Source of the DNA: a virus
DNA length: 64,000 nucleotides
Strand: one strand, 5' to 3'
Virus record (IMG/VR): IMGVR_UViG_3300024348_000005
Coordinates: 83,744 to 147,743 of that record
Position numbers and translations under genes: made by a program. Every line of letters starts with the position of its first letter. Positions within the stretch are counted from its first letter, which is position 1. Shown here piece by piece: positions 1,361 through 64,000 of the stretch. The notes below the pieces were generated by a model, which saw only the letters and a list, made by a program, of their open reading frames with translations, did not search any database and was not told the origin of the DNA.

Positions 1361-3337
1361 ATGGCACAAATAGTCAAACTGCGTAGGAGCGCTGTATCCG
1401 GTCAAAAACCAACAAACAGTAATTTACAGCTAGGTGAATTAGCGTTGAATACCGCCGATGGTAAGGTATACATGGCAGTGTCAGGTTCGGGAGGACCCTC
1501 AATTCAAGAATTATTAGTAACAAACACGGTTAATACAGGTTCAATTTATCTTACAAATAATGTAACCGCATCTTTTTTCACAGGTTCATTTATTGGTAAT
1601 GGTACGGGTTTATATAACGTACCGGCAAGTGGTGTAACTGGATTAAGTCTTTACCAAATCGTAAGTGGTTCGGTATCTGCCTCAATATCACCTGATTTAG
1701 GATTTCAAATTAATACTAATACTGCAATAACAGGTACATTATCTGTTAGTGGTAATTTATTTGCAACATCATCACACGCAATTAGTGCATCATATGCCGC
1801 GAATGCCATTATTGTTTCTGGACAAACAAAAACTTTAACGGTAAATCCGGCAGCAACAACATGGTCATTCCAACATAATTTAGGTTACAAATATCCAGCA
1901 ATTAATGTTTTTGATGTTAATGATAATGTAGTTGTACCAAAAGAAATAACTGTAGTTGACAATAATAATTTAGTTGTATATTTCGATACACCACAAATAG
2001 GTACTGTAATTGCAACGATTGGTGGTAACGGTTCTTCCGGAACAAGCGGAACATCAGGTACGAGTGGTTCTTCAGGAACTGCAGGTACGTCAGGTACGTC
2101 AGGAACAAGTGGAAGTTCAGGATCATCAGGTTCTAGTGGTAGTTCAGGTACAACCGGTTCTTCAGGAACCTCAGGTTCATCGGGAAGTAGTGGTAGTACT
2201 ACCGTAGGTGCTTATAATTCTTTAACAGTATCAAGTCCAAGCACAACATGGTCATTTCAACATGATTTAGGTGCTCAATATCCTGTATTTCAAATTTATG
2301 ATACAAATGGTTTTGTAATAATTCCACAACAAATACAAGCCATTGATTTATATAATTCAACAATAACATTTTCATCACCACAATCAGGTATTGTTGTTGC
2401 AACTCTTGGTGAAGGTGGTGGTGGGTCTTCAGGTACTTCAGGCACTAGTGGAACCTCAGGTTCAAGCGGTAGTAGTGGAACTTCAGGTACGTCAGGAACA
2501 AGTGGAAGTAGTGGTACAAGTGGTTCTGCCGGAACTAGTGGTACTTCAGGTAGTTCAGGGTCAAGTGGAACGTCAGGAACAAGTGGTACATCAGGTTCTA
2601 GTGGTTCTTCAGGAACATCTGGTACAAGTGGTAGTGATGGTTCATCGGGTACTAGTGGTAGTAGTGGAACCTCAGGTTCAAGTGGTAGTAGTGGAACGGC
2701 CGGTACATCAGGTTCTTCAGGTTCTAGCGGTAGTAGTGGTACTAGTGGAACATCAGGGTCTAGTGGTACTAGTGGAACATCAGGGTCTAGTGGTTCGTCA
2801 GGAACAAGTGGTAGTAGTGGAACGTCCGGCACATCGGGTTCTTCAGGAACTGCGGGTACATCAGGTACATCAGTAACAGTTGGAGGTACGACTAATACGA
2901 TTGTTAAGTTTGATTCACCAACAACAATTGCTGATTCAAATATAGATGACAACGGTAGTTTAATTACACTAAACACAAATACAACAATTTCAGGGTCATT
3001 ATCTGTAACGGGAAGTGTTGGTATAACCAACGGTAGAATATATAATCAATATTCAAATGTTGTTTCAGGTACAACAAGTGTTTTTGCAATTCAAACAGGT
3101 TCATTTACCTCCGCATTTTTCAATTATACATTATATGATCAAGCAAACGCTAGAGCGGGTATTATTGTGAGTGCTTGGAATGGTAACATTATAAACTATA
3201 ATGAAACAACAACTACCGACATTGGAGACACAACGGATGCAACATTTGACATAACATTATCAAATGAAGGTCACATCGAATTAAAGGTTATTTCAACCGC
3301 TAACTGGTCTTTTAAAACAATGACAACATTTTTATAA
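1361..3337 (+). CDS. Tail-fibre-like protein with Mtd-N-like N-terminus, two H[ND]LG modules and (G-S/T-S)n tracts
   Basis: MAQIVKLRRS...LQLGELALNTADGKVY resembles phage fibre N-terminal attachment domains; ATG 1361 preferred over TTG 1340. Confidence 0.75.
   Translation: MAQIVKLRRSAVSGQKPTNSNLQLGELALNTADGKVYMAVSGSGGPSIQELLVTNTVNTGSIYLTNNVTASFFTGSFIGNGTGLYNVPASGVTGLSLYQIVSGSVSASISPDLGFQINTNTAITGTLSVSGNLFATSSHAISASYAANAIIVSGQTKTLTVNPAATTWSFQHNLGYKYPAINVFDVNDNVVVPKEITVVDNNNLVVYFDTPQIGTVIATIGGNGSSGTSGTSGTSGSSGTAGTSGTSGTSGSSGSSGSSGSSGTTGSSGTSGSSGSSGSTTVGAYNSLTVSSPSTTWSFQHDLGAQYPVFQIYDTNGFVIIPQQIQAIDLYNSTITFSSPQSGIVVATLGEGGGGSSGTSGTSGTSGSSGSSGTSGTSGTSGSSGTSGSAGTSGTSGSSGSSGTSGTSGTSGSSGSSGTSGTSGSDGSSGTSGSSGTSGSSGSSGTAGTSGSSGSSGSSGTSGTSGSSGTSGTSGSSGSSGTSGSSGTSGTSGSSGTAGTSGTSVTVGGTTNTIVKFDSPTTIADSNIDDNGSLITLNTNTTISGSLSVTGSVGITNGRIYNQYSNVVSGTTSVFAIQTGSFTSAFFNYTLYDQANARAGIIVSAWNGNIINYNETTTTDIGDTTDATFDITLSNEGHIELKVISTANWSFKTMTTFL
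2030..2870 (+). repeat. Coding Gly-X-Ser tripeptide (9-nt period) tracts, interrupted by one globular module
   Basis: ggttcttca/ggaacatca/ggtagttca units encoding GSS/GTS/GTA; boundaries approximate. Confidence 0.9.
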
Positions 3338-3365
3338 AAAATAAATGAAATTAAGTAAATAACAA

Positions 3366-3374
3366 ATATTTATA
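3366..3374 (+). promoter_or_regulatory. Putative late promoter RTATTTATA
   Basis: atatttata about 35 nt upstream of ATG 3410. Confidence 0.6.
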
Positions 3375-3409
3375 AAGGACTTAGTGTAATATAAAAACAA
3401 AAGTAAAAA

Positions 3410-6400
3410 ATGGCAAATCAATTCATAGTTAAAAACGGTCTCATTGTAGACCAAGGTGGCGCGATAATAACGGGTTCATCCAATATTTCGGGCTCATTAG
3501 CAATAACAGGTTCACTCAACCTTTCAGGTAGTCAAACAATTACCGGAAATTTAGAGGTTGGAGGTAATTTGATCGCCAATCAATACATTGTTTCTTCTTC
3601 AGTTAGTTATATAACAGAATCTTTTGCCTCAGGTTCACATAAATTTGGTGACAGTTTAGACGATAATCATGATTTTACTGGTAGTCTAAACATCACAGGT
3701 TCATTAAATATTAATGGTACTTCATATACTGCTGCAACATCAGGTACTTCAGGTACTTCAGGTAGTTCAGGAACAAGTGGTACATCGGGTTCTTCAGGGT
3801 CAAGTGGAAGTAGCGGTTCATCAGGAACAGCTGGTTCTTCAGGAACAAGTGGTACCTCAGGTTCTTCAGGAACTGCCGGTACGTCAGGTACATCAGGTTC
3901 TTCAGGTACATCAGGTTCTTCAGGTACTGCAGGAACAAGTGGTTCATCAGGTTCTTCAGGAACTAGTGGTTCATCTGGTTCTTCAGGTTCAAGTGGTACA
4001 TCAGGTTCAAGTGGTACTGCGGGTACTTCAGGAAGTTCAGGTACATCAGGTTCTGCAGGTACGTCAGGTACTTCTGGTTCAAGTGGTACTGCAGGAACAA
4101 GTGGTTCATCAGGTTCTAGTGGGTCAAGTGGTTCTTCAGGAACTTCAGGTTCTAGTGGATCAAGTGGAACATCAGGTTCTAGTGGTTCATCGGGAAGTTC
4201 CGGAACTTCAGGTTCAAGTGGTTCTTCGGGTAGTGATGGTTCTTCAGGAACATCAGGTACTTCAGGTACTGCGGGAACTTCAGGAACTTCAGGTTCTAGT
4301 GGTTCTTCAGGTAGTTCGGGTACATCAGGTTCTAGTGGTTCTTCAGGAACAAGTGGTTCATCGGGAACATCAGGTTCTAGTGGTTCTTCAGGTTCAAGTG
4401 GGTCTAGTGGTAGTTCTGGAACATCGGGTTCTAGCGGTTCTGCTGGTACATCAGGTTCTTCAGGTACTTCAGGTTCTAGTGGTTCTTCAGGTTCTTCAGG
4501 TTCTTCAGGAACTGCGGGAACATCAGGAACATCAGGTTCTTCAGGTTCTTCAGGTTCTTCAGGAACAGCAGGTACTGCGGGTACGTCAGGTACATCGGGT
4601 TCATCGGGAACATCAGGTTCATCAGGTTCTAGTGGAAGTAGTGGAACTGCGGGTACTTCAGGTACTTCGGGTACATCAGGTTCTTCAGGTTCATCAGGAA
4701 GTAGTGGTACTGCAGGTACTGCGGGTACATCAGGAACATCAGGTTCGTCTGGTACATCAGAGGTTTATAAAACAACATCAACTTCAACCTTTACATTAGG
4801 TCAAGCTGGATCATTAACGGTCCTATCAGGATTAAGTTACTCAGCGGGACAATCAATTATAATCGCTTACGACGTTAACAATTATCAAGAGTCTGACGTT
4901 GTAAGTTATAGTGGAACAACATTAACATTCACAGCACCAGATTCAAATGGTACTGTGGGTAGCGGTATATATTCAGATTGGACAATTAACTTGGATGGTG
5001 CAACAGGTGCCGATGGTAGTTCAGGAACCTCAGGTTCTTCAGGTTCTTCAGGTTCAAGCGGTTCATCAGGTTCAAGTGGTTCATCAGGTACAGCAGGAAC
5101 TTCAGGAACATCAGGTTCAAGTGGTTCTTCAGGAAGTAGCGGAACGGCTGGTACATCTGGTACATCAGGAAGTTCAGGTTCAAGTGGTTCATCAGGTTCA
5201 TCAGGTTCAAGTGGAACATCTGGATCAAGTGGAACATCAGGTTCTTCAGGTTCTTCAGGTTCTTCAGGAACATCAGGAACAAGTGGAAGTTCAGGTTCAT
5301 CAGGTTCATCAGGAACGGCCGGTACAAGTGGTAGTTCAGGAAGTTCAGGAACTGCAGGAACATCCGGTTCTTCAGGAACATCAGGTTCAAGTGGATCATC
5401 GGGAACTGCTGGTACATCAGGTACAAGTGGAACTTCAGGAAGTAGTGGTTCAAGTGGTTCGTCAGGAACTGCGGGTACATCTGGTTCTTCAGGTAGTTCA
5501 GGTTCATCAGGTACAGGTGGTACATCAGGGTCTTCAGGAACATCAGGAACATCAGGTTCTAGCGGTTCAAGTGGTTCTTCAGGAACAGCAGGAACAAGTG
5601 GTACCTCAGGTAGTTCAGGAACTGCAGGTTCTTCAGGAACAGCAGGTACAAGTGGAACATCGGGGTCTTCTGGTTCATCAGGTTCTTCAGGTGATAGTAT
5701 ATTCGCTTTAACAGGTTCAGTTTGGGAGACGAATTTTAGTGTTAAATTTAATCAACCAGTAACTTCTTCTGTATTCACAGGTTCATTTATAGGTGATGGT
5801 GCGGGTTTATATAATATTCCAGCGTCAGGTGTTACAGGATTAGAATTAAATAAAATAGTAAACGGTGCGGTAAGTGCATCTGTTTTATCTGATGGAACAT
5901 TCAGAGTAAACGGAGATACCTATATTAATGGTACATTAACCGCAAAAGAAATACATACGAGTATTGTTACATCTTCAGTACTTTACGAAAGTGGTAGTAC
6001 TAAATTTGGAGACACACTTGATGATACTCATTCATTTACTGGTTCTGTTAACATTACAGGTTCAATTTCATTAAATGGTCAAGCAATTGGTACAGGTAAA
6101 TTAGATGAAACAGCATTCAATACGTATGTTTCAGGTTCAAGTTCACAATTTGCCGGTACATCGTCATTTGCTGTTTCTTCATCATATGCTGTTTACGCTG
6201 AAAATGCGGTTATTGTTTCAGGTCAAACTAAAACATTAACAGTAGGTTCTAATACAACAACATGGTCATTTAATCATAGTTTAGGATACAAATATCCTGC
6301 AATTAACGTTTTTGACACTAACGACAAAGTTATTGTTCCAACAGAGATTGAGGTTATTGATAGTAATAATTTAAAAGTATATTTTAACGTACCACAAAGT

Positions 6401-9181
6401 GGTACAGTAATTGCAACTGTTGGTGGTAACGGTTCTTCAGGAACATCAGGAACCGCAGGTACAAGTGGTAGTTCAGGAACAGCAGGAACAAGTGGAACAT
6501 CAGGTTCTTCAGGTAGTTCAGGTTCTTCAGGTTCTTCAGGTAGTTCAGGAACATCAGGTTCAGCAGGTACTTCAGGTTCTAGTGGTTCTTCAGGAACCGC
6601 CGGTACATCAGGTAGTGACGGTTCTTCAGGAACATCGGGTAGTTCAGGTTCTAGTGGTTCTTCGGGAACTGCGGGTTCATCAGGAACTTCAGGTAGTTCA
6701 GGTTCATCAGGTAGTTCAGGAACAAGTGGAACGTCAGGTTCTAGTGGTTCAAGTGGTTCATCAGGAACAAGTGGAACTTCAGGAACTTCGGGTTCATCAG
6801 GAAGTTCAGGTACAAGTGGAACATCAGGTTCGTCAGGAACAAGTGGAAGTTCGGGTTCATCAGGTTCTAGTGGTTCTTCAGGAACTGCAGGTACGTCAGG
6901 TACTTCAGGAACAAGTGGAAGCTCAGGTTCTTCAGGTTCTAGTGGAACATCAGGTTCATCAGGTTCTTCGGGAAGTTCAGGAAGTTCGGGTTCATCAGGA
7001 ACATCAGGAACATCAGGTTCATCAGGAAGTTCAGGGTCAAGTGGAACTGCTGGTACTTCGGGTACTTCAGGTTCATCGGGGTCATCAGGAAGTAGCGGAA
7101 CTGCTGGTACATCGGGTACATCAGGTACTTCAGAGGTTTATAAAACAACATCAACTTCAACCTTTACATTAGGTAATTCAGGTTCGTTAACAGTACCAAG
7201 TGGATTAAGTTATTCAGTTGGACAGTCAATTATAGTTGCGTACGATATAAATAATTATCAAGAGTCGGTTGTCGTTAGTTATAGCGGGACAACATTAACA
7301 TTTAGTGCACCTAACATTAATGGTACTTTTGGTAGTGGTATATATTCAGATTGGAATATTAACTTAGATGGTACAACAGGTGCTGACGGTTCTTCAGGTA
7401 CTTCAGGTACTTCAGGTACTTCAGGTTCTAGTGGTTCATCAGGTTCGTCAGGAACAGCGGGTACTTCAGGTTCAAGTGGTTCAAGTGGTTCATCAGGAAC
7501 ATCGGGTTCAGCGGGTACTTCAGGTAGTTCAGGGTCAAGTGGAACATCTGGTTCAAGTGGTTCTTCAGGTACTTCAGGTAGTTCGGGTTCTTCAGGAACA
7601 GCCGGTACAAGTGGAACATCAGGTTCTAGTGGTTCAAGTGGAAGTTCTGGTACATCAGGCACTTCAGGAACATCAGGTTCAGCGGGTACTTCAGGTAGTT
7701 CAGGGTCAAGTGGAACATCAGGTTCTTCAGGAACATCGGGTTCTTCAGGTTCAAGTGGTTCTTCAGGCACCGCAGGCACTTCGGGTACCTCGGGAAGTTC
7801 AGGTTCATCAGGAAGTTCAGGTAGTAATGGATCATCAGGAACAAGTGGAACATCGGGTTCTTCAGGAACATCGGGAAGTAGTGGTAGTACTACGGTAGGT
7901 GCATACAATTCATTAACCGTATCAACACCAAGTACAACATGGTCATTCCAACACGATTTGGGAGCACAATATCCTGTTGTTCAAATTTACGATTCAAACG
8001 GATTTGCAATTATACCTACAACAATTAGAGCAATTGACTTATATAATATTGAAGTAACATTCTCAACACCACAAGCCGGTTTAATTGCGGTGACACTTGG
8101 TGAAGGTGGTGGTGGTTCATCAGGAACAAGTGGTAGCTCAGGTTCTTCAGGTTCTTCAGGAACCGCAGGTACAAGTGGTAGTTCAGGAACTGCAGGTTCA
8201 TCTGGTTCTTCAGGAACTGCAGGTTCAAGTGGTACATCAGGAACAAGTGGAACATCTGGTTCTAGTGGTTCAAGTGGAACATCGGGTACATCAGGTAGCT
8301 CAGGTTCTTCAGGAACAAGTGGAAGTTCAGGTACATCAGGTTCATCAGGAAGTTCAGGTACTTCAGGTTCGGCTGGAACATCAGGAACAAGTGGTACAAG
8401 TGGTTCTAGTGGGTCAAGTGGTTCATCGGGAACAAGCGGTAGTTCAGGTTCTTCAGGAACTTCAGGTTCAAGTGGGTCATCTGGTTCTTCAGGAACATCA
8501 GGTACTTCAGGAAGTTCAGGTAGTTCAGGTTCATCAGGAACCGCGGGAACAAGTGGTTCAAGTGGAACATCAGGAACTTCAGGTTCGTCAGGTTCTAGTG
8601 GGTCATCTGGTACTTCAGGTACGAGTGGAACATCAGGTTCTTCAGGAACGTCAGGTTCTAACGGTTCAAGTGGTACGAGTGGTTCAAGTGGTTCTTCAGG
8701 AACAGCAGGTACTTCAGGTTCCGCGGGTACATCAGGTACATCAGGTTTAATAACATTAGCGGGAACAACTGATAATGGTATTATAACACTCAATGGTAGT
8801 TCACCAAATGGTACCGTTGAATCTAATTTAACATTTAATGGTTCAACATTAGATTTGACGGGTGACATCTTAATGAATTCTAAAGTTGGTTTTAAATCAG
8901 AAAGAATTACAGGTGTAACAGGAACATCAACAGTGTTTATATTAACAGGATTTGATGGTATGGTTATGGATTACTTGGCAAAAAATGGTTCTAACATGAG
9001 AGCGGGTACGGTTGTGGGTATTTGGGATGGTTCAAATTCTAATTTATCTGAAACGACAACAACTGACTTAGGTAACACAACTGCAATCACATTTAGTGTA
9101 TCAAATGCGGGAACAATAAGTGTAAACGCGTCATCAGGAACATGGACAATTACTGCAACAGTAAGAGCGTTAAGTAGTTAA
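3410..9181 (+). CDS. Giant modular fibre-like protein (1923 aa) with five G-S/T-S repeat tracts
   Basis: Long ORF with a duplicated EVYKTTSTSTFTLG...DWxINLDG module, H[NSD]LG modules and KFGD[ST]LDD modules; C-terminal domain homologous to that of 1361-3337. Confidence 0.8.
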   Translation: MANQFIVKNGLIVDQGGAIITGSSNISGSLAITGSLNLSGSQTITGNLEVGGNLIANQYIVSSSVSYITESFASGSHKFGDSLDDNHDFTGSLNITGSLNINGTSYTAATSGTSGTSGSSGTSGTSGSSGSSGSSGSSGTAGSSGTSGTSGSSGTAGTSGTSGSSGTSGSSGTAGTSGSSGSSGTSGSSGSSGSSGTSGSSGTAGTSGSSGTSGSAGTSGTSGSSGTAGTSGSSGSSGSSGSSGTSGSSGSSGTSGSSGSSGSSGTSGSSGSSGSDGSSGTSGTSGTAGTSGTSGSSGSSGSSGTSGSSGSSGTSGSSGTSGSSGSSGSSGSSGSSGTSGSSGSAGTSGSSGTSGSSGSSGSSGSSGTAGTSGTSGSSGSSGSSGTAGTAGTSGTSGSSGTSGSSGSSGSSGTAGTSGTSGTSGSSGSSGSSGTAGTAGTSGTSGSSGTSEVYKTTSTSTFTLGQAGSLTVLSGLSYSAGQSIIIAYDVNNYQESDVVSYSGTTLTFTAPDSNGTVGSGIYSDWTINLDGATGADGSSGTSGSSGSSGSSGSSGSSGSSGTAGTSGTSGSSGSSGSSGTAGTSGTSGSSGSSGSSGSSGSSGTSGSSGTSGSSGSSGSSGTSGTSGSSGSSGSSGTAGTSGSSGSSGTAGTSGSSGTSGSSGSSGTAGTSGTSGTSGSSGSSGSSGTAGTSGSSGSSGSSGTGGTSGSSGTSGTSGSSGSSGSSGTAGTSGTSGSSGTAGSSGTAGTSGTSGSSGSSGSSGDSIFALTGSVWETNFSVKFNQPVTSSVFTGSFIGDGAGLYNIPASGVTGLELNKIVNGAVSASVLSDGTFRVNGDTYINGTLTAKEIHTSIVTSSVLYESGSTKFGDTLDDTHSFTGSVNITGSISLNGQAIGTGKLDETAFNTYVSGSSSQFAGTSSFAVSSSYAVYAENAVIVSGQTKTLTVGSNTTTWSFNHSLGYKYPAINVFDTNDKVIVPTEIEVIDSNNLKVYFNVPQSGTVIATVGGNGSSGTSGTAGTSGSSGTAGTSGTSGSSGSSGSSGSSGSSGTSGSAGTSGSSGSSGTAGTSGSDGSSGTSGSSGSSGSSGTAGSSGTSGSSGSSGSSGTSGTSGSSGSSGSSGTSGTSGTSGSSGSSGTSGTSGSSGTSGSSGSSGSSGSSGTAGTSGTSGTSGSSGSSGSSGTSGSSGSSGSSGSSGSSGTSGTSGSSGSSGSSGTAGTSGTSGSSGSSGSSGTAGTSGTSGTSEVYKTTSTSTFTLGNSGSLTVPSGLSYSVGQSIIVAYDINNYQESVVVSYSGTTLTFSAPNINGTFGSGIYSDWNINLDGTTGADGSSGTSGTSGTSGSSGSSGSSGTAGTSGSSGSSGSSGTSGSAGTSGSSGSSGTSGSSGSSGTSGSSGSSGTAGTSGTSGSSGSSGSSGTSGTSGTSGSAGTSGSSGSSGTSGSSGTSGSSGSSGSSGTAGTSGTSGSSGSSGSSGSNGSSGTSGTSGSSGTSGSSGSTTVGAYNSLTVSTPSTTWSFQHDLGAQYPVVQIYDSNGFAIIPTTIRAIDLYNIEVTFSTPQAGLIAVTLGEGGGGSSGTSGSSGSSGSSGTAGTSGSSGTAGSSGSSGTAGSSGTSGTSGTSGSSGSSGTSGTSGSSGSSGTSGSSGTSGSSGSSGTSGSAGTSGTSGTSGSSGSSGSSGTSGSSGSSGTSGSSGSSGSSGTSGTSGSSGSSGSSGTAGTSGSSGTSGTSGSSGSSGSSGTSGTSGTSGSSGTSGSNGSSGTSGSSGSSGTAGTSGSAGTSGTSGLITLAGTTDNGIITLNGSSPNGTVESNLTFNGSTLDLTGDILMNSKVGFKSERITGVTGTSTVFILTGFDGMVMDYLAKNGSNMRAGTVVGIWDGSNSNLSETTTTDLGNTTAITFSVSNAGTISVNASSGTWTITATVRALSS
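3737..8746 (+). repeat. Coding (Gly-Ser/Thr-Ser)n tracts (approx. 3737-4757, 5013-5692, 6431-7131, 7388-7888, 8110-8746)
   Basis: Gly at every third residue over hundreds of codons, with mixed synonymous codons. Confidence 0.9.
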
Positions 9182-51927: not shown

Positions 51928-52224
51928 ATGATAGATTTCAAAGAAATTTCAACTGCGTGGTACAATACACTTATACATTCTAATGAATTAAAAAAATTAG
52001 CAGATAATAGGTTTGATATTTGTTTAGAATGCCCATCTAAGCAAGAAATGTTTAAAGGAAAGGAATGGTCCCTCAGATGTGGAGAATGTGGTTGCCCATT
52101 AAAAGGTAAAGTATATACCCCAAAAACATATTTAGATAAAAAGGGGTCGTGTCCATTAGGAAAATGGAAAGAAGTTGAAGATGAATATTTAAAAAGTTTT
52201 AAAAAATCTAAAACTATTATATAA
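51928..52224 (+). CDS. Small Cys-rich metal-binding protein (DUF6171-like)
   Basis: RFDICLECP...CGECGCPL..K...CPLGKW; ends KTII. Confidence 0.7.
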   Translation: MIDFKEISTAWYNTLIHSNELKKLADNRFDICLECPSKQEMFKGKEWSLRCGECGCPLKGKVYTPKTYLDKKGSCPLGKWKEVEDEYLKSFKKSKTII

Positions 52225-52226
52225 CA

Positions 52227-54109: not shown

Positions 54110-54118
54110 TAATATATT

Positions 54119-55659: not shown

Positions 55660-56131
55660 TAAGGAGGAGTGTGAATCTATAATATCATATAACGACACAC
55701 ATATTACAAATTGGTTAATGGGAGATAGAAAATACAATTCACAACCAATTAATTATTCATTAGAAACCAAATGGTTATTTGATAAATTAAAAGAATTTGT
55801 TGAAGAAAATACTGATATTAAAATAAAGAAAATTAAAGAAACAATACATTTTCATAAATTTACAAAAGATGATTGGTTTGGAAAACATAACGATATTAGA
55901 GATAATAGATTATATGCTGTGGGAGTTTTATTAAACGATGAATTTGAAGGGGGTGATTTTAAATTATACAACCCAAATCAAATTATATTAGATAAAGTTA
56001 TTGGAAATACATATTTATTTGATGTAAGAATAGACCACGAAATAACACCAATTTTAGAAGGTGAACGATATTCTTTATTATGGTTTTTAGAAAATGAACA
56101 TATAAAAATAGAAACAAATAAATTAATATGA
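55631..56131 (+). CDS. 2OG-Fe(II) oxygenase
   Basis: HND, LNDEFEGGDF, HEITPILEGERY; ends NKLI. Confidence 0.85.
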   Translation: MILKEKILFSKEECESIISYNDTHITNWLMGDRKYNSQPINYSLETKWLFDKLKEFVEENTDIKIKKIKETIHFHKFTKDDWFGKHNDIRDNRLYAVGVLLNDEFEGGDFKLYNPNQIILDKVIGNTYLFDVRIDHEITPILEGERYSLLWFLENEHIKIETNKLI

Positions 56132-56934
56132 ACCCATTAGAATATTGGAATTCAGAAGGATTTGAAATTTCATCTTATATGTATTCATTAAGGGGAAGAG
56201 TAAATAAAACATACAGAACTTCCGGTAGTGATAATACCGAAAAATGTACCTACACCTATAATGAATTAGGATTTAGGGGTGATAGTATAAAAAAAGAAGG
56301 TTTTAAAGTCATGTCATTAGGATGTTCAAATACCGAAGGTGTTGGAGTAAATCATTATGAAACATGGCCATCTCAATTCACATCATTAATACCAAACGGT
56401 ATTAATATGAATTTTGGTACGGGGGGTAGAAGTAATGATTTCATTACTAGATGTCTATTAACATATTATGATATAATAAAACCTGATTTGGTATTAATAA
56501 TGTATACAGATCCATTTAGAAGAGAATTTTATACTAAAGATGGTGGGATAGAACCCTTTATGCCAACAGTATCTTGGGGATATTTGAAAGAAACAGATGA
56601 CGGTGTTAAAACACAAGAATATTTAACTTATTTACAAAATAATAACGAGGACATAATAAATTGGCATAAAAATCATTTATTAATAAAGTATTTTTTAGAA
56701 TCAAAAAAATGTAATTGGATATGGAATGGTTTTTTCAATATACCAAAAGATTGTAATGAATTTAATAGATTTGATGGCGATTACGATATGCCTTTTTTGG
56801 ATTTTGGAGTTGATGGGGTACATCCAGGTCCAAACCACAATAAAACATACGCTCATAAATTGTATAATTTCATATCAAAAAATTTCCCACATTACATATA
56901 TTACTTACCCAAAAATAAACAAAGTTTGATTTGA
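56128..56934 (+). CDS. SGNH-like protein
   Basis: YNELGFRG, LGCSNTEGVG, NFGTGGRSN, DGVHPG; ends QSLI. Confidence 0.7.
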   Translation: MNPLEYWNSEGFEISSYMYSLRGRVNKTYRTSGSDNTEKCTYTYNELGFRGDSIKKEGFKVMSLGCSNTEGVGVNHYETWPSQFTSLIPNGINMNFGTGGRSNDFITRCLLTYYDIIKPDLVLIMYTDPFRREFYTKDGGIEPFMPTVSWGYLKETDDGVKTQEYLTYLQNNNEDIINWHKNHLLIKYFLESKKCNWIWNGFFNIPKDCNEFNRFDGDYDMPFLDFGVDGVHPGPNHNKTYAHKLYNFISKNFPHYIYYLPKNKQSLI

Positions 56935-56966: not shown

Positions 56967-59693
56967 ATGAAAATCTTAGCACACGCCCCCTTTATTGGTA
57001 CTACAGGTTACGCCAATCATGCACGTTCATTCTTTTGTGCACTCAATAAGTACCATACTGTAAAAGTTAGAAACCTTACCATTGGAAACAGTTGGAAGGG
57101 TATGAATAACCGACCTCACGATGGAGAACCATATTTCACCAAAGAAATTGGGGATATGTTGATTTTACAGACATTAAATAAGGCGGATGGTAACGGGAGA
57201 GTAGATGAACCAATGTACGATTACAAAGGTGACTTTGTACCGGATGTACATATTGTACTCATGGAAACTAATAACCACTACTTCTTTGATGACTATGTGG
57301 GTTATAAGATTGCATATAACGTATGGGAATCAACACGTTATCCCGACGAGTTCTTTAATCAATTATTAAAGTTCGATGAGATGTGGGTACCAACTCAATG
57401 GCAATTTGATTGTTTAGTTGAACAAGGTTACCCAAAAGAAAAGATATTCATTGTACCCGAAGGAGTTGATGTTGACATATTCAAACCAATTAAAAAATAT
57501 CCCGAAAGAGATAAAATACAATTCGTACATTTTGGTAGATGGGATTATAGAAAAGGAACGACAGAAGTACTTCAAGCATTTGCTGAAGAGTTTAAAGACG
57601 TGGATGACGTTGAATTAATTGCATCGGTTGAGAACCCATACCCATACGACGGATTGAAATCAACTGAAGAGAGGATTACACATCATAATATTGATACAAA
57701 AAATATCAAGTTTGTTAAGTTTCCACCAAGGAAAGATTATGTTAAATACCTACAAGAGGCACATGTGTTTGTATCGTGTGCTCGTAGTGAGGGATGGAAT
57801 TTACCATTAATTGAAGCGATGGCATGTGGTACACCATCCATCTATTCCAATTGGGGTGGTCAGTTACAATTTGCTCAAGGTAAGGGCATTCCTGTTGAGA
57901 TTAAATCATTGAGACCAGCAAATATTGAACACAAGGAATTTCCTGGTGAGTATTGTGAACCAGATTGGGAAGATCTTAAATTTAAGATGAGACAAGCGTA
58001 TGATTACAATACCGCAATGTGGGTTACAGCGAGGGGTGACGCTAAAAATATTCATGAAAAATTTAATTGGGACACGGTAGCGAAGGGTGCCTGTGAAATT
58101 TTAGAAAGAAATAAAAAACCATTTGCGTTTGTAACAACTGGTAATTTAAGTTACATGCCGGTGATTGAAAAATTAGTTCAATCCTTATTAGAATTCTCAG
58201 AACAAAAGATTTTAGTTTATGGTATCGATTGTGAGGTTCCATTTGACTATCCAAATATTATTAAAAGAACAATTACTGTTCCTAAAATTTCAGAACATGA
58301 TAAATGGTATTGGAAACAATGGTCTTGTATTGAAGCGTTAAAAGAAGACTTTGAAAATTTTGTTTGGGTTGATGGTGATGTTGTTGTTAATCACAATATT
58401 GATAACATTAGACAATACTTTAATCAAATTGAAAACTATCCAATTGCCGATATCCACGTACAAGAAGAATTTTTTGGTATGTACGATAATGGAAACAAGT
58501 CGCAATTATTTAATGAACAATTGGCAAATGAATGGGGTGTAGGTAAAAGAAACCCATACATGCATATTTGTCTTTATGTTTACAATAAAAATTGTGGTGA
58601 ATGGTTCGATGAATTACTTACTCACTATGTTTCATTAATGTCAACTAAACCCGAAGAATATAAACGATTATATCTTTGGAATGATGAGGGTATTGATAAC
58701 GCTATGAGATGGAAACATGGACATACGAAACATTTACCATTATCTAATTTTGATACATCGTCTTATGATGGTGACGCGGGTTTCATTGATAAATCATTAC
58801 ATCAATTCTATAAATTTTGGAATGAGGAAGGACCTCAGAACTTTGATAGAATATTCGGTTATCAATTTATACCAAAAGATAAATCTAAAATCATTTATTT
58901 CCACGGTAATAAGAACGCTGAGATTTCAGATAAGATGATTGAGTTTATTAAAATGCAACGAGACAATTCATTTTATAAATCACATTGTTTCTATACCGAT
59001 GTTTATAAAGTAGAAAACTTTTCACAATATTATCAATATGAAGGAAGTACACTTGATGTAGCTTCTAAATTTGGTTGGGCGGTCGCTATCTTTCATGAGA
59101 TTTTTAACTTATTGGATTATTATAAGAATAGGGAAAGAACCATCAATGAAGGAGACACCGTTGTTGACTTAGGTGGTAACATAGGAGTATTCAACAGATG
59201 GGCATATAGTCAGGGTGCGAGTAGGGTAATATCATTTGAACCTGATAAGAGGTACTTTAAATTATTGTCATTAAATGCTGACCCACGTTCAATAATATTC
59301 AACGCCGCCGCAAGTGACTCTATTGGTGAGTTGAGTTTATATGAAAGTGTACACTTGGGTGGATCAAATTTATTTGGTACACAGGAAGGTGCAAAGGAAT
59401 ACAAGGTAAGAACATATACATTAGACTACCTTTTTGAAACGAGATTAATTGATAAAATTGATTTCTTAAAGATAGACATTGAAGGTGCTGAACATCACGC
59501 ACTAAAAGGAATTAGTGACGAGAATCTTATGAAGGTTAAAACAATTTCAATGGAATACCATCATAGTCATTTTGATTATAATGAAGAGTTGAGACAAGAA
59601 ATGATTGATAGAATGATGAGATTAGGGTTTACCACATATATTTTATTTATGGGTTCAAATAATGCATTACAAATGATATATTTTACAAGATGA
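56967..59693 (+). CDS. Tri-domain GT4 glycosyltransferase / GT-A-like domain / FkbM methyltransferase
   Basis: TGYANHAR, GRWDYRKG, EGWNLPLIEAMACG; WVDGD, NDE; VVDLGGNIG, FEP, LKIDIEGAE. Confidence 0.85.
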   Translation: MKILAHAPFIGTTGYANHARSFFCALNKYHTVKVRNLTIGNSWKGMNNRPHDGEPYFTKEIGDMLILQTLNKADGNGRVDEPMYDYKGDFVPDVHIVLMETNNHYFFDDYVGYKIAYNVWESTRYPDEFFNQLLKFDEMWVPTQWQFDCLVEQGYPKEKIFIVPEGVDVDIFKPIKKYPERDKIQFVHFGRWDYRKGTTEVLQAFAEEFKDVDDVELIASVENPYPYDGLKSTEERITHHNIDTKNIKFVKFPPRKDYVKYLQEAHVFVSCARSEGWNLPLIEAMACGTPSIYSNWGGQLQFAQGKGIPVEIKSLRPANIEHKEFPGEYCEPDWEDLKFKMRQAYDYNTAMWVTARGDAKNIHEKFNWDTVAKGACEILERNKKPFAFVTTGNLSYMPVIEKLVQSLLEFSEQKILVYGIDCEVPFDYPNIIKRTITVPKISEHDKWYWKQWSCIEALKEDFENFVWVDGDVVVNHNIDNIRQYFNQIENYPIADIHVQEEFFGMYDNGNKSQLFNEQLANEWGVGKRNPYMHICLYVYNKNCGEWFDELLTHYVSLMSTKPEEYKRLYLWNDEGIDNAMRWKHGHTKHLPLSNFDTSSYDGDAGFIDKSLHQFYKFWNEEGPQNFDRIFGYQFIPKDKSKIIYFHGNKNAEISDKMIEFIKMQRDNSFYKSHCFYTDVYKVENFSQYYQYEGSTLDVASKFGWAVAIFHEIFNLLDYYKNRERTINEGDTVVDLGGNIGVFNRWAYSQGASRVISFEPDKRYFKLLSLNADPRSIIFNAAASDSIGELSLYESVHLGGSNLFGTQEGAKEYKVRTYTLDYLFETRLIDKIDFLKIDIEGAEHHALKGISDENLMKVKTISMEYHHSHFDYNEELRQEMIDRMMRLGFTTYILFMGSNNALQMIYFTR

Positions 59694-60349
59694 GTACATT
59701 AGACAAATTAGCAAAATCGTTCGGAACCGATAAATCTTCCGACAATCACAATTATTGTGTTAAGTATGAAAAATATTTACCATTTAATAGATATGATAAC
59801 TTAAATATTTTAGAGATTGGTATTTTAGATGGTAAGTCACTATTAACGTGGAAGGATTACTATTATCGTTCGAACATTTTAGGTATTGATATTAATCCCG
59901 ATTGTAAAAAATTTGAAGAGGAAAGAATTTCGGTTGAGATTGGTTCACAAGCGGATGGAAATTTTTTATCGAGAACATGGCAACAATATGGACCATTCGA
60001 CATGATTTTAGATGATGGGTCACATATGAGTAGTCATATGATTTATTCATTTGAACATTTATTTGGTTCGGTTAAATCGGGTGGTGTTTATGTTATTGAA
60101 GATATTGGTTGTTCGTATTGGGAGGATTATGGTGGTGGATACCTTAACCCCGGAAGTTCCATCGAGTACTTCAAAAGATTATCCGATGACATTAATTTTA
60201 GAGGATTAATGAATTTTGATTATTCTAATGTACATGCAAGAAGAGAAGATGTTTTGACTGATTTATCAAAACAAGTACAACCAGGATGTAGAACCGATAT
60301 TGAATCGATAAATTTCCTTAATGGAATTATTATAATAACTAAACGATAA
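59690..60349 (+). CDS. Class I SAM-dependent (sugar O-)methyltransferase
   Basis: GTDK...HNY, LEIG, GIDI, FDMILDDGSH, GGVYVIED. Confidence 0.85.
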   Translation: MSTLDKLAKSFGTDKSSDNHNYCVKYEKYLPFNRYDNLNILEIGILDGKSLLTWKDYYYRSNILGIDINPDCKKFEEERISVEIGSQADGNFLSRTWQQYGPFDMILDDGSHMSSHMIYSFEHLFGSVKSGGVYVIEDIGCSYWEDYGGGYLNPGSSIEYFKRLSDDINFRGLMNFDYSNVHARREDVLTDLSKQVQPGCRTDIESINFLNGIIIITKR

Positions 60350-62466
60350 TGGGATATAGTTTTGACGAAGATATCTTCGTAATTGATTGTTGGATTGATA
60401 CTAAAGAAAAAGAGCAAACACTTCTTAATTTAATTAATAGAGTAAAGATTTATAATGTACCAATATTATTATGTGGACACAGTCCCGTTAGTATTGAAGT
60501 ACAAAAACAAGTTGACTATTTCTTATATGATAAAAATAACAATATTTTATTAGAAAAGGATTTTGATGAGTATGGTGTTGTTAGTGATAGATGGTCTATC
60601 ATGAATGACTATAAAGTTTTTAATAAAGTAAACTTTCATCATGACTATGCAATTTGGGATACAATGAGAAATGCATTTCAATTTGTAAAGAAGTTAGGTA
60701 AAAAATACATACACTTTATTGAGTTCGATAATTTACCCGATGAAATACAATATCGTCAATCGTTTATGGAATATATTAGGGGAAACGACGTTGTGGTTCA
60801 AGAATATCTTCAAGGTTCAACAAAAGAACAGGACCCATATTGTGCCACGTACATATTCTCAATTAAAACGGATATTGCGAATCAAATGATTGATAGGATT
60901 AACACAAAAGAGGAGTATTTTAAAGATAGACCGGGTAAGTGGCAATTAGAAAAGGTATTTTATCAAACGTTAAAAGAGATTACCGGTAGTATTTTTGTTA
61001 GTAAGTATATTCCAAATGATGGTGAGTTAAACATATATGCGGCTTGGAACCGTAATGGTATTTTACGAAATGGTGCAAGATTTCAAACATATTTGGCGGT
61101 AGACCATCATAAAAAATTATATATACATTTTATTTCGGGATTTTCCGAGAATCCCGCGGACAAAGACTATATGGTAGAAGTAAATTACGGATCTCGTAGT
61201 TTCTTTCATACAATTAAAAAGGGTTCCTATCAAATAGAGGAATTGGGGGATTATATTGGGGAAGAGACAATAAAAGTGTTTTATCAGGGGATTGAAGTTT
61301 TCACAGAAACTCTTAATAAAGGTGTTGATGAATTTAGAAGATTAAATAAATTAGAATGGAAAGTTAAAGAATCAAACAGGAGAATTAATATAAATTTTGT
61401 TGATGGGCCTTTTATTGAGATATTAGATAATGTTGATTTATCTTATAAAATTGATTTTGTTAATAGAAAAAATAACAAAATAGAATATTCAACCACATTA
61501 AGGAGTAATCATTGGTCTAAGTGTTCGATAAAATATCACGTAGATTGGGAAATTAGGATTGTGGGTATAGATAATGACTATGTTGGAACTTATTTAATGG
61601 ACCTTAAAGAAAAAAGAGTCTTAATTAGTTATGAAACAAAATCTTTAGGGGACAATATTGCATTCATACCATATGTTGAAGAGTTTAGAAAACAAAAAAA
61701 TTGTCATGTTGTTTGTTCTACGTTTCATAATGACTTATTTAAAAAGGATTATCCTGAAATTGAATTTGTTGAACCGGGGACTAACGTTGATAACATTTAT
61801 GCGGTTTATAGATTAGGTATTTTTTATGAAAATAAACAAATAGATTATTCAAAACACCCAATTGACCCAATTAAGGAACCACTAATGAAGGTTGCAACAG
61901 ATATTTTAGGTATAAATTATAAAGAAACTAAGGTAAAACTCCCTAAATTATCTAAATCAAAAAAGAAAAGAGTGTGTATTGCAATTCACTCAACCTCACA
62001 AGCAAAATATTGGAACAATCCAACGGGATGGCAGGACGTTGTTGATTATATAAAGGGAAAGGGATATGAAGTAAGACTTCTTTCAAGAGAAGAAGATGGG
62101 TATATGGGTAATTCTAATCCAAAAGGTGTCACTAACCAACCAAATAGCACCACTAAGGAGGTATTAAAAACAATTCAAGAATCAAAACTATTTATTGGTA
62201 TAAGTAGTGGTTTAAGTTGGTTAGCTTGGGGTACAGATACACCTGTTGTTATTATATCAGGTTTTACCGATAAACACTTAGAACCAATTGAAGGAATTAC
62301 TCGAATAATAAATAAAGAAGTGTGTAATAGTTGTTGGCACAGTCACGAATTTGATCCAGGAGATTGGAATTGGTGTCCTATACATAAAAATACCGACAGA
62401 CAATTCGAATGTTCAAAAGAAATCACATCTGAGGATGTAATTAAACAAATTAAAAATTTTTTATAG
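60349..62466 (+). CDS. Aah/TibC-like protein O-heptosyltransferase domain with long N-terminal extension
   Basis: SLGDNIAFIPY, AKYWNNPTGW, FIGISSGLSWLAW, ISGF, CNSCW...WCP...FECSKEI. Confidence 0.75.
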   Translation: MGYSFDEDIFVIDCWIDTKEKEQTLLNLINRVKIYNVPILLCGHSPVSIEVQKQVDYFLYDKNNNILLEKDFDEYGVVSDRWSIMNDYKVFNKVNFHHDYAIWDTMRNAFQFVKKLGKKYIHFIEFDNLPDEIQYRQSFMEYIRGNDVVVQEYLQGSTKEQDPYCATYIFSIKTDIANQMIDRINTKEEYFKDRPGKWQLEKVFYQTLKEITGSIFVSKYIPNDGELNIYAAWNRNGILRNGARFQTYLAVDHHKKLYIHFISGFSENPADKDYMVEVNYGSRSFFHTIKKGSYQIEELGDYIGEETIKVFYQGIEVFTETLNKGVDEFRRLNKLEWKVKESNRRININFVDGPFIEILDNVDLSYKIDFVNRKNNKIEYSTTLRSNHWSKCSIKYHVDWEIRIVGIDNDYVGTYLMDLKEKRVLISYETKSLGDNIAFIPYVEEFRKQKNCHVVCSTFHNDLFKKDYPEIEFVEPGTNVDNIYAVYRLGIFYENKQIDYSKHPIDPIKEPLMKVATDILGINYKETKVKLPKLSKSKKKRVCIAIHSTSQAKYWNNPTGWQDVVDYIKGKGYEVRLLSREEDGYMGNSNPKGVTNQPNSTTKEVLKTIQESKLFIGISSGLSWLAWGTDTPVVIISGFTDKHLEPIEGITRIINKEVCNSCWHSHEFDPGDWNWCPIHKNTDRQFECSKEITSEDVIKQIKNFL

Positions 62467-62502
62467 TTTTAAAAATTTTTAATACTTAAACATAATTGTC
62501 GA

Positions 62503-62511
62503 GTATTTATA
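62503..62511 (+). promoter_or_regulatory. Putative late promoter RTATTTATA
   Basis: gtatttata about 20 nt before ATG 62532. Confidence 0.6.
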
Positions 62512-62531
62512 TGGTATAATATCATATTTAA

Positions 62532-64000
62532 ATGAAAATATTTGAACCAGTTATAACAGGGTCCCTTTCAGTATCAGGATCGGCAAATGTCTCAGGAGAC
62601 TTAACCGTACTTGGTACTATAAACGCATCGATTAGCGGTACAACAACGAACGCGACAAGTGCTTCACATGCGTTGTACGCGGATGACGCTAATAAATTGG
62701 ATGGTAAAGACTCATCCGAATTTGCAATAACGGGAAGTAACGTATTTAAAGCGAGTCAAACAATTACTGGCTCACTTTTCGTCACGACCGATATAATATT
62801 AAACGGACAATCGTACACAGGACAAACGTCAGGTACATCAGGTTCCTCAGGTTCGTCAGGTTCAAGTGGAACGGCCGGTAGTTCAGGTTCTAGTGGATCA
62901 TCAGGTTCTAGTGGGTCATCGGGCTCTTCAGGTTCTAACGGTAGTTCAGGAACAAGTGGAAGTTCTGGTTCATCAGGCTCATCAGGAACTTCAGGTTCTA
63001 ACGGTAGTTCAGGAACCGCAGGTACATCAGGATCATCTGGTTCAAGTGGATCATCTGGAAGTAGTGGTTCTTCAGGAACAAGTGGTTCATCAGGTTCTTC
63101 GGGTTCTTCAGGAACATCAGGTTCTTCAGGGTCAAGTGGTTCATCAGGTTCATCAGGAAGTTCAGGAACTGTTACTTTAAGTGGTACAACAGATAATGGT
63201 TTATTAACATTGAACGGTAGTTCACCTAACGTTAGTGTTGAACCTAACTTAACTTTTGATGGTACAACACTTACAGTTACGGGTGATATATTAGTAACGA
63301 ACAATCTATTAGTTCAAGGTACAAATACGAATTTACAAGTTACCAACTTATATGTTGAGGACAAATTAATCACATTGGCAAGTGGGTCATTAACAGCCGC
63401 AGCTGCTAATGGTGCGGGTATTGAGGTTGTTGGACCAGCAACAGGTGCCACATTCACATACGCAAATGCTGATGATAGTTGGAATTCAAATAAAAAATTA
63501 AATGTTCCGTCACTTACAATTAACGGAACATCATATTCCGCGGCGACTTCGGGTACATCAGGAAGTTCAGGTTCTAGCGGTTCATCAGGTTCTTCAGGTT
63601 CTTCAGGTTCAAGTGGATCATCAGGAACAAGTGGTTCTTCAGGAACTTCAGGTTCTAGTGGATCATCAGGTTCTTCAGGTTCTTCAGGTTCAAGTGGTTC
63701 ATCTGGAACAAGTGGTTCTTCAGGTTCTAACGGATCTTCTGGTACATCAGGTTCTAGTGGATCATCAGGTTCTTCAGGAACAAGTGGTTCATCAGGAAGT
63801 TCTGGAAGTTCAGGAACATCAGGTTCTAGTGGTTCTTCAGGTAGTTCAGGTTCAAGTGGGTCATCAGGTAGTTCAGGTTCAAGTGGATCATCAGGTACAA
63901 CAACAATTACAAACGCAAGTGATGACCGTGTAATGACAAGTGCGGGTGGAGTTACCCTAAATAGTGAAGCAAATTTAACATTTAACGGAACAACACTATA
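62532..64000 (+). CDS. G-S/T-S repeat fibre-like protein, 3'-truncated (not in ORF track)
   Basis: MKIFEPVITGSLSVSGS... runs to the window end; shares GTTDNG..TLNGSSPN with 3410 and TITNA.D.RVMTS.GGVTLN.EANLTF with 9294. Confidence 0.8.
   Translation, partial: MKIFEPVITGSLSVSGSANVSGDLTVLGTINASISGTTTNATSASHALYADDANKLDGKDSSEFAITGSNVFKASQTITGSLFVTTDIILNGQSYTGQTSGTSGSSGSSGSSGTAGSSGSSGSSGSSGSSGSSGSNGSSGTSGSSGSSGSSGTSGSNGSSGTAGTSGSSGSSGSSGSSGSSGTSGSSGSSGSSGTSGSSGSSGSSGSSGSSGTVTLSGTTDNGLLTLNGSSPNVSVEPNLTFDGTTLTVTGDILVTNNLLVQGTNTNLQVTNLYVEDKLITLASGSLTAAAANGAGIEVVGPATGATFTYANADDSWNSNKKLNVPSLTINGTSYSAATSGTSGSSGSSGSSGSSGSSGSSGSSGTSGSSGTSGSSGSSGSSGSSGSSGSSGTSGSSGSNGSSGTSGSSGSSGSSGTSGSSGSSGSSGTSGSSGSSGSSGSSGSSGSSGSSGSSGTTTITNASDDRVMTSAGGVTLNSEANLTFNGTTL

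Follow-up and report, generated by a model that had tools for sequence, protein, structure and literature searches.

To our knowledge, glycosylation of phage-particle proteins has been documented in very few phages, all of which use small sets of enzymes. Among eukaryotic giant viruses, Mimivirus coats its surface fibrils by means of sugar-nucleotide pathways and transferases of its own and also encodes collagen-like proteins, which are modified at hydroxylysine by LH3-like enzymes. The enzyme families of Mimivirus are, however, unrelated to those of the locus described here, a window of 64,000 nucleotides of viral DNA (IMG/VR record IMGVR_UViG_3300024348_000005, positions 83,744 to 147,743; positions given below refer to the window unless another record is named). 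In this window, four plus-strand fibre open reading frames (ORFs) bracket an enzyme island of 49 kb (13293-62466). Since a relative of the bacterial protein O-glycosyltransferase TibC lies in this block of sugar enzymes between giant collagen-like fibres, the phage probably sugar-coats its own fibres, and a probability of roughly 0.6 is given to the reading that it does so with participation of the island.

Comparison with described systems

Besides the fibrils of Mimivirus, the TibC-TibA and Aah-AIDA-I systems of Escherichia coli, the exosporium protein BclA of Bacillus and mycobacteriophage virion glycosylation may be regarded as closer analogues of the locus than animal proteoglycans. In the E. 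coli systems, as here, the enzyme gene adjoins one for a long and repetitive surface protein rich in Ser, which the enzyme would hyperglycosylate in the cytoplasm, and in three of three annotated bacterial plasmid loci the family gene is located directly upstream of an AIDA-type substrate gene. The same layout is found here, as the enzyme gene starting at 60349 ends 66 bp before the start of fibre 4 (62532). Both enzymes belong to the same family (NCBIfam TIGR04414, above cut-off) and share the catalytic Asp, Thr-226, Lys-230, Trp-305 and the iron-finger Cys residues of TibC. Known members of this family modify beta-helix loops (PMC4358343). Here, in contrast, the enzyme is phage-encoded and, although the adjacency itself is kept, the adjoining gene and presumed acceptor is a collagen-like fibre instead of a beta-helical autotransporter. 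Moreover, Arg-286 of TibC is lost in most phage homologues, which group in a clade of their own on a long branch of the tree, and a GT-A-like domain is fused to the enzyme, as GT4 and methyltransferase domains are in other phages.

BclA and the galactosyl-threonine collagen of vent worms are Gly-X-Y fibres with O-linked sugars on hydroxy-amino acids, an arrangement that is predicted for the present fibres, and glycosylation of this type is thought to stabilise the hydroxyproline-free triple helix (PMC8968730, PMC11923368). BclA differs by its Gly-Pro-Thr triplets and by other enzyme families, whereas the present triplets have no proline and are dominated by Ser, and the enzyme is TibC-like. 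Mycobacteriophages modify their own structural proteins with phage-encoded glycosyltransferases (Freeman et al. 2023, as cited in PMC12619734); these glycans are reported to be located on the capsid and tail-tube C-termini and to need few enzymes, in contrast to about 1,500 presumed Ser/Thr acceptors and up to 49 kb here. By its gene content, the island can also be likened to hypervariable region C, in which cyanomyophages and pelagimyophages of the T4-like type keep tail-fibre genes together with numerous glycosyltransferases and sugar enzymes over about 34-45 kb; carbamoyltransferase and 2-oxoglutarate (2OG) oxygenases are common to both (PMC7029224). The authors of that study, however, assigned the transferases to the host O-chain, and TibC-like enzymes and Ser/Thr-only collagen fibres are not reported in it.

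A first description of the window, made from its letters and referred to here as the original prediction, had compared the fibres to proteoglycans. Likeness to the linker of animal proteoglycans is given by the GT7 enzymes, for which beta4GalT7 is the best relative of solved structure, by the predicted dense Ser-linked brush and by candidates related to 3'-phosphoadenosine 5'-phosphosulfate (PAPS) and sulfotransferases. In contrast, the fibre tracts are without the acidic Ser-Gly context, and the island ORFs gave no Pfam match (E <= 0.001) to a xylosyltransferase or glycosaminoglycan-polymerase family. Because the Ser-Gly sites sit in collagen Gly-X-Y triplets, they are by-products of these and not free proteoglycan motifs. 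With sulfation only weakly indicated, the proteoglycan framing did not hold as family membership, which is rejected, and stands as an analogy only.

The TibC-like enzyme

The C-terminal domain of the 60349 protein matches TIGR04414 with 284.1 bits (cut-off 200) over profile positions 5-373 of 374, and the TibC structure 4rap is aligned to the protein with E 2.4e-55; Pfam contributes a weak Glyco_transf_9 match. Judged by curated score and catalytic residues, the domain is hence a true, equivalog-level member of the Aah/TibC family of bacterial autotransporter O-heptosyltransferases (BAHT). The functional residues of TibC include the catalytic Asp-110, the iron-finger residues Cys-339, 342, 358 and 370, and Arg-286, which binds the heptose and whose mutation abolishes or largely diminishes activity (PMC4358343). 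The catalytic base Asp-110 and the residues Thr-226, Lys-230 and Trp-305, which bind the donor, correspond to Asp-435, Thr-549, Lys-553 and Trp-624 of the 60349 protein. The equivalents of Asp-110, Lys-230 and Trp-305 are invariant in all 44 distinct phage homologues, while that of Thr-226 is kept in 43 of them (one Thr-to-Ser exchange). Likewise, the iron finger (Cys-659, 662, 676 and 688) is invariant in the 44 phage and four bacterial sequences. As Arg-286 is replaced, the donor used by the phage enzyme may be other than ADP-heptose.

For the N-terminal 240 residues, a structural model (predicted local distance difference test, pLDDT, 85) shows a GT-A/nucleotide-diphospho-sugar transferase fold, with a structural match at Z 14.9 and a root-mean-square deviation (rmsd) of 3.0-3.6 over 161-179 aligned residues. 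This domain contains a conserved E-x-D-N-x-P-D motif and lacks the Gly loop of nucleotidyltransferases; it is more likely to be a second glycosyltransferase. Homologues of the TibC-like enzyme number more than 3,000 in metagenomes, some of them fused to methyltransferases.

Collagen-like fibres without known stabilisers

All four fibre ORFs are rich in Ser, Gly and Thr and match Pfam Collagen (PF01391) with E values of 1e-26 to 6e-155. Gly occupies every third residue in 774 uninterrupted Gly-X-Y triplets, arranged in runs of up to 138, and this periodicity is far beyond chance. The triplets are almost only Gly-Ser-Ser, Gly-Thr-Ser and Gly-Thr-Ala, with Ser (56%) or Thr (41%) accounting for 97% of position X, and Ser (87%) or Ala (8%) for 94% of position Y. 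Pro and Lys do not occur in them, Asp occurs eight times and Arg once. Consequently, the fibres contain 714 Ser-Gly dipeptides (71, 358, 208 and 77 in ORFs 1361, 3410, 9294 and 62532, respectively), so that the predicted arrangement of four Ser-Gly-rich fibre genes around an enzyme island was found as proposed. PHROG matches comprise tail-fibre and collagen-like minor-tail families (tail fiber with E 2.8e-88 for fibre 3). Ig-like spacer domains separate the Gly-X-Y runs, and motifs of the type T-G-S-L-x-I-[ST]-G-S recur in the non-collagen parts. A tblastn search with an Ig-like spacer retrieved only a small non-collagen protein of phage NCTB and was uninformative. Overlapping ORFs in other frames of the fibre genes are repeat artefacts.

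By sequence, the fibres are thus collagen-like without the usual stabilisers, as neither Pro/hydroxyproline in X or Y nor Lys-Gly-Asp/Glu salt bridges, the stabiliser rules given for the triple helix in PMC11923368, are found in the triplets. Such a sequence should not fold by any known rule. The peptide (Gly-Pro-Thr)10 stays a random coil without galactosylation of its Thr residues (PMC11923368), and the collagen-like BclA is glycosylated (PMC8968730). Taking these precedents together with the missing stabilisers, glycosylation may be structurally required for fibre folding. Prolyl or lysyl hydroxylation of the collagen type by the 2OG oxygenases of the island was also considered and was rejected for repeats without Pro or Lys.

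Linkage of enzyme and fibre genes

For the linkage test, 66 viral loci encoding relatives of the enzyme were scanned for Ser/Thr-type Gly-X-Y ORFs, using flanks of mostly 10 kb on each side and counting by lineage (enzyme clusters at 80% identity). Such an ORF was found near the enzyme in 22 of the 29 phage lineages, the nearest copy lying no more than 7.5 kb from it. In a 23rd lineage, the sole Collagen match in 190-256 kb (contigs 27-36% complete) is of the Gly-Thr-Ser/Gly-Ser-Ser type and lies 11.6 kb from the enzyme. The position of the fibre ORF varies: it may follow the enzyme gene on the same strand after 57-72 bp, precede it by 1-2.6 kb or lie on the opposite strand, and the pairing persists across these rearrangements, down to 36-38% enzyme identity and in phages of 700 kb and more. 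The 735-kb phage LR756501, for example, carries a Gly-Thr-Ser/Gly-Ser-Ser ORF 4.8 kb from the enzyme. As a control, 77 loci of similar phages were centred on homologues of family A, five further paralogues of the island described below; none of them has a collagen-like ORF or a TibC-like gene within 10 kb.

Only 4 of 50,697 GenBank phage records carry the enzyme. In the cultured Microcystis phage Mel-JY01 (PP395634, locus L067), the TibC-like part forms the C-terminus of a 1227-aa GT4-methyltransferase-TibC-like fusion, located 4.2 kb from a plus-strand ORF with 202 Gly-Thr-Ser/Gly-Ser-Ser triplets. The latter ORF (positions 2-3049 of that record, at least 1016 aa) is unannotated; GenBank lists opposite-strand, Pro/Val/Glu-rich "hypothetical proteins" in its place and labels the fusion only as "methyltransferase FkbM". 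A literature search revealed no paper linking TibC-like enzymes to phages, nor any on Mel-JY01. Because this deposited phage with the named host Microcystis elabens carries the pairing, a direct test is possible.

Genes near the enzyme are conserved as well. The TibC-like gene is accompanied in 41 related loci by a tblastn match to the GT4-FkbM ORF at 56967, which in some phages is fused to the enzyme, and the Methyltransf_24 gene at 59690 is present in 17 of 19 close relatives. In 19 relatives (53-89% identity), homologues of the short-chain dehydrogenase/reductase (SDR), SGNH, 2OG, radical S-adenosylmethionine (SAM) and sulfotransferase-like genes flank the enzyme gene within 10 kb on either side; hence, at least the right-hand part of the island travels with this cassette (56967-62466). 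When five large records with family A homologues (G011-G015) were compared over their whole length, TibC-like gene and collagen-like ORFs were both present in G011, G012 and G014 and both absent in G015. The order of fibres, island, enzyme and fibre is repeated in G011 and G012 (about 48% identity).

Proposed mechanism and alternative explanations

What was observed are sequence features, membership in families, the conservation of catalytic residues and the linkage of genes; from these we infer which acceptor and sugars are involved, in which order the steps run and what the glycan coat does, as follows. The fibre genes would encode collagen-like, triple-helical virion fibres, whose Ser/Thr residues would be O-glycosylated by the cassette while the chains remain in the host cytoplasm. 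The TibC-like domain would place the first sugar on the fibre protein, perhaps from a donor other than ADP-heptose, and the fused GT-A-like domain and the GT4 enzyme would extend the glycan. At least part of the surrounding island would contribute further: GT7 and GT10-like transferases could lengthen and branch the glycan, deoxy-sugar and branched-sugar enzymes could supply donors, and carbamoyl-, methyl-, SGNH- and possibly sulfotransferases could decorate it. Dense glycosylation may then let the fibres fold. Fibre glycosylation by the phage, the core of the original prediction, is supported by the identity of the enzyme, a real Aah/TibC member 66 bp from a fibre gene, by its linkage to fibres in many rearranged lineages, the clean control and the bacterial parallel, and additionally by the fibre chemistry, the conserved neighbours and an island without membrane machinery.

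Several points weigh against this reading. The fibre glycan is predicted from genes, and none has been observed on any such fibre. Hypervariable regions combining fibres and glycosyltransferases have been read as serving host O-chain modification (PMC7029224), family A homologues in other phages are far from fibres (the 77 control loci), and the acceptors known for the enzyme family are beta-helix loops, not triple helices (PMC4358343). Arg-286 is Val-605 here and V/L/I/T/A in 41 of the 44 phage homologues, in contrast to four of four bacterial sequences and three deep phage lineages, which keep it. Record G013 (244,850 bp, 86% complete) has no TibC-like gene yet one Gly-Thr-Ser/Gly-Ser-Ser ORF, making it a possible exception to the pairing. 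In clade L052-L062, a GT4-TibC-like fusion stands directly upstream of a tail-sheath-like gene and the scanned DNA is without Ser/Thr collagen, so that the acceptor may differ in this clade. Finally, part of the linkage may be inherited gene order, since the loci come from related phages.

It is conceivable, although rather doubtful, that all 49 kb act as one assembly line that builds, on about 1,500 fibre Ser/Thr residues, a branched heteroglycan bearing methyl, carbamoyl, acyl and sulfate groups, with glycosylation replacing Pro, hydroxyproline and salt bridges in folding and the TibC-like donor switched from ADP-heptose. At the other end, the three-gene cassette could be all that serves the fibres, with the bulk of the island (13-56 kb) being a usual hypervariable region of T4-like aquatic phages with other targets, such as host lipopolysaccharide or capsule in defence against superinfection. 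This is what the control loci would suggest, as family A homologues elsewhere are never within 10 kb of fibres or enzyme, and it agrees with the size (about 34-45 kb) and the favoured O-chain role of the regions in PMC7029224, with a carbamoyltransferase common to cyanophages and pelagiphages, and with the complete record G014, which holds fibres, island genes and enzyme far apart. Nevertheless, we consider it unlikely in view of an island in which membrane proteins and Pfam matches to lipid-carrier, flippase or ligase families are both missing, of the SDR, SGNH, 2OG and sulfotransferase-like genes that stay near the enzyme in 19 relatives, and of the gene order recurring in G011 and G012.

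Two further alternatives concern the target of the enzyme. It could act on virion proteins at short strand-loop-strand Ser/Thr-Gly motifs of beta parts (fibre N-domains, sheath, baseplate) instead of collagen triplets, as the beta-helix acceptors of known members, the T-G-S-L-x-I-[ST]-G-S type repeats of the non-collagen fibre parts and the tail-sheath-like neighbour in clade L052-L062 would allow. However, it is the Gly-Ser/Thr-Ser tract itself that tracks the enzyme in 22-23 lineages, even with unrelated flanking domains, which leaves little likelihood for this option; both kinds of acceptor are compatible with each other in any case. Still more improbable is that no virion protein is glycosylated and that the enzymes modify host proteins or glycans, standing beside fibre genes only by way of a recombination-prone late region. 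Hypervariable regions do collect unrelated cargo (PMC7029224), but chance neighbourhood is at odds with a pairing that survives rearrangement at the enzyme identities given above, that recurs in a cultured cyanophage of different genome layout and in phages of 700 kb and more, and that is missing from all control loci. Hypermodification of phage DNA with sugars, lastly, is hardly to be expected. Phage DNA glycosylation is well known (cited in PMC12619734) and the GT-B structures matched by family A include T4 DNA beta-glucosyltransferase (Z about 10), yet the best of these matches is a fucosyltransferase, the TibC family is protein-specific, and no base-modification pathway, for example an enzyme forming hydroxymethylcytosine or hydroxymethyluracil (hmC/hmU), is among the Pfam matches of the island ORFs.

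With fibre glycosylation as the preferred reading, an enzyme family known only from bacterial adhesin systems appears here paired with giant phage fibres in widespread large aquatic phages. If true, the fibres would represent a new class of viral glycoprotein and would show in a natural system whether glycosylation can drive collagen folding. Some of the genes counted as "host lipopolysaccharide" cargo in aquatic myophages would have to be reassigned to virion decoration, and there would be consequences for how hosts are recognised and how stable the particles are in lakes and oceans. Should even the whole island serve the fibres, these could be seen as the viral equivalent of a bottlebrush of the mucin or proteoglycan kind.

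Gene content of the window

The window has a G+C content of about 30% and no tRNA genes, and a megablast search of GenBank phages with 24 kb of the island gave no match. The island comprises about 50 tightly packed ORFs between the fibre genes, whose content was established by Pfam, NCBIfam, PDB and fold searches (Table 1). Particular to this window is the scale, with 49 kb, at least ten glycosyltransferase domains, a large tailoring set and fibre genes on either side.

Table 1 Features of the fibre genes and the enzyme island, in window coordinates
Feature	Position	Strand	Basis and remarks
Fibre 1	1361..3337	+	658 aa; 71 Gly-X-Y triplets in two runs with Ig-like spacer domains between; Pfam Collagen E 1.4e-26
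Fibre 2	3410..9181	+	1923 aa; 400 triplets in five runs (longest 113), 62% of protein; Pfam Collagen E 5.8e-155
Fibre 3	9294..13037	+	1247 aa; 226 triplets (longest run 138); C-terminal tail-fibre-type domain; Pfam Collagen E 7e-86
Laminin_G_3 (concanavalin-A-like) paralogue pair	13293..14739	+	Pfam E 1.6e-25 and 2e-17; PHROG virion structural protein; 39% identical
ORF 14764 (no named family), Methyltransf_24 (15474), borderline GT2-like (16216)	14764..17064	+	Pfam
Two GT7 (beta-1,4-galactosyltransferase family) enzymes	17260..20117	+	Pfam Glyco_transf_7N/7C E 1e-15 to 1e-20
Radical SAM twitch-domain paralogues 20114 and 22964; ORF 22185 matching N-domain of 20114	20114..24421	+	NCBIfam, Pfam, paralogy
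Putative GT-B glycosyltransferase, family A paralogue 1 of 5	24421..25704	+	Paralogy; family fold
Minus-strand operon	27055..38994	-	Pfam, NCBIfam, paralogy, motifs
Thiamine pyrophosphate (TPP) E1-beta-like protein	27055, in minus-strand operon	-	Split pair with 36841
Three family B paralogues	within 27600-30108, in minus-strand operon	-	SGNH-like by motif only
2OG-Fe(II) oxygenases 30086 and 33344	in minus-strand operon	-	Pfam/NCBIfam
SDR 30718 and SDR 38008	in minus-strand operon	-	Pfam/NCBIfam
SDR-2OG fusion	31692-33347	-	SDR sugar epimerase/reductase joined to 2OG-Fe(II) oxygenase
Family A paralogues 33972 and 35693	within 27055..38994	-	Paralogy
TPP E1-alpha-like protein	36841, in minus-strand operon	-	Split pair with 27055
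RmlC-like epimerase	37470, in minus-strand operon	-	Pfam/NCBIfam
Family A paralogues 39015 and 40325	39015..41623	+	Paralogy; AlphaFold2 model of 40325
SGNH/GDSL-like 41623; family C 42182, 42898 and 43505; 44350	41623..44973	+	Pfam, hhalign, motif
DUF5672 protein and NodU/CmcH-type O-carbamoyltransferase	44933..47350	+	Pfam E 3.8e-29; Carbam_trans_N/C E 1e-60 to 1e-63
Adenosine phosphosulfate (APS)-kinase-like P-loop protein and 126-aa HxGH nucleotidyltransferase	47497..48341	+	Pfam APS_kinase E 1.6e-19
Tailoring block	50209..56934	+	Pfam, motifs, profiles
2OG-Fe(II) oxygenases 51354, 53639 and 55631; 50739 weak	in tailoring block	+	Pfam
Sulfotransferase-like candidates 52227, 52907 and 55162	in tailoring block	+	Profile comparison
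Radical SAM 54119; SGNH-like 56128	in tailoring block	+	NCBIfam (54119 below cut-off); motif (56128)
GT4 glycosyltransferase-FkbM methyltransferase fusion	56967..59693	+	Pfam, NCBIfam; first cassette gene
Methyltransf_24 methyltransferase	59690..60349	+	Pfam; second cassette gene
Two-domain enzyme	60349..62466	+	Residues 1-240 GT-A-like; 245-337 beta-sandwich; 339-703 Aah/TibC-family protein O-glycosyltransferase
Fibre 4	62532..64000 (3' open)	+	77 triplets in visible part; Pfam Collagen E 3e-33

The list of enzymes in the original prediction stands for glycosyltransferases, sugar-nucleotide enzymes, methyltransferases and carbamoyltransferases, whereas its acyl- and sulfo-transfer parts are weaker. 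As regards the glycosyltransferases, the GT7 assignment was confirmed by PDB matches to beta4GalT7 (E 2e-25) and beta4GalT1 (E 2e-23), a result that does not separate the subfamilies; the first of the two enzymes is fused to a lectin-like Laminin_G_3 domain. ORF 16216 stays just below the GT2_4 cut-off (27.0 versus 27.5 bits). Family A has no Pfam match, but the AlphaFold2 model of 40325 (pLDDT 86.7, predicted template modelling score, pTM, 0.86) matches GT-B glycosyltransferases only, best an alpha1,3-fucosyltransferase of GT10 (Z 11.6, rmsd 5.3, 274 aligned), which suggests that family A consists of five GT10-like GT-B paralogues. PDB sequence-profile searches with families A, B, C and the 55162 family yielded nothing usable. 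The Laminin_G_3 pair at 13293-14739 likely represents lectin-like or receptor-binding parts of the virion and not enzymes. For the sugar-nucleotide pathway, three SDR epimerase/dehydratases are found in the island; these and the RmlC-like epimerase score below the NCBIfam equivalog cut-offs and so do not point to a named sugar.

Acyl transfer is represented by SGNH/GDSL-like proteins only. Profile support among these is confined to 44350, which matches Pfam Lipase_GDSL_2, and to family C, related to 44350 by hhalign (probability 90%). Family B and three others were recognised by motif by eye, namely 41623 by a GDSF motif and likewise 25704 and 56128, and comparison of family B with an SGNH profile gave a probability of 4%. 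Concerning sulfation, the APS-kinase-like ORF remains below the NCBIfam apsK cut-off (73 versus 139 bits), and the profile of the 52227/52907 family has one match to heparan sulfate 2-O-sulfotransferase (E 0.0013), over the loop expected to bind PAPS. The 55162 family is related to the 52907 family (hhalign probability 73%), and Pfam at E <= 1 gave no sulfotransferase match for the candidates. Sulfation by the island is thus weakly indicated by sequence comparison. The carbamoyltransferase shows about 30% identity to its cyanophage and pelagiphage homologues. Furthermore, the island has six clear 2OG-Fe(II) oxygenases and three radical SAM proteins, of which 20114 reaches 317 bits against the twitch-type family NF033640 (cut-off 170) and 54119 matches the same family below cut-off. 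No island protein has a convincing membrane segment, with two soluble enzymes showing one borderline hydrophobic stretch each, and no flippase, polymerase, ligase or lipid-carrier transferase family was matched by island ORFs in Pfam (E <= 0.001).

Further sequence observations

Up to ten SGNH/GDSL-like proteins in one island (27600-30108 on the minus strand, 41623-44973 on the plus strand, 25704 and 56128) constitute an unusual expansion, and Cys replaces Asp in the G-D-S block of several of them. In the fusion at 31692-33347, the oxygenase part shows a weak resemblance to FlmC, an oxygenase of flagellin modification (E 6e-5, below cut-off). ORF 48583-50079 encodes 498 aa with a Cys-rich C-terminus and has no Pfam match at E <= 1; in 9 of 19 relatives, a homologue of it is located close to the TibC-like gene. 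Elsewhere, L055 of clade L052-L062 encodes at 3138-7515 a 771-aa GT4-TibC-like fusion followed by an ORF with a tail-sheath-like N-terminus, and G013 (L170, L171) has charged, ordinary collagen-like fibres (Gly-Ala-Gln, Lys-Gly-Asp) in addition to its Gly-Thr-Ser/Gly-Ser-Ser ORF of 700 aa.

The plus-strand motif TATTTATA occurs at 1289-1296, 3367-3374, 9251-9258, 47470-47477, 48558-48565 and 62504-62511, so that each of the four fibre genes and ORFs 47497 and 48583 have a copy 18-70 nt upstream. Another motif, TATATTAT, stands ahead of 14764, 22964 and 56967. Fibre genes and part of the island may have promoters in common. In front of the minus-strand operon, TATAAATA is found at 39034-39041; as an enriched T4 late-promoter motif it was rejected, with 12 copies found versus 15 expected. 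Finally, about 16 otherwise unrelated island ORFs (24421-56934), among them 25704, 28424, 29257, 35693, 40325, 50209, 50739, 52227, 52907, 54119, 55162, 55631 and 56128, end in -[STKN]-L-I, a shared C-terminus that may serve as a docking or sorting tag.

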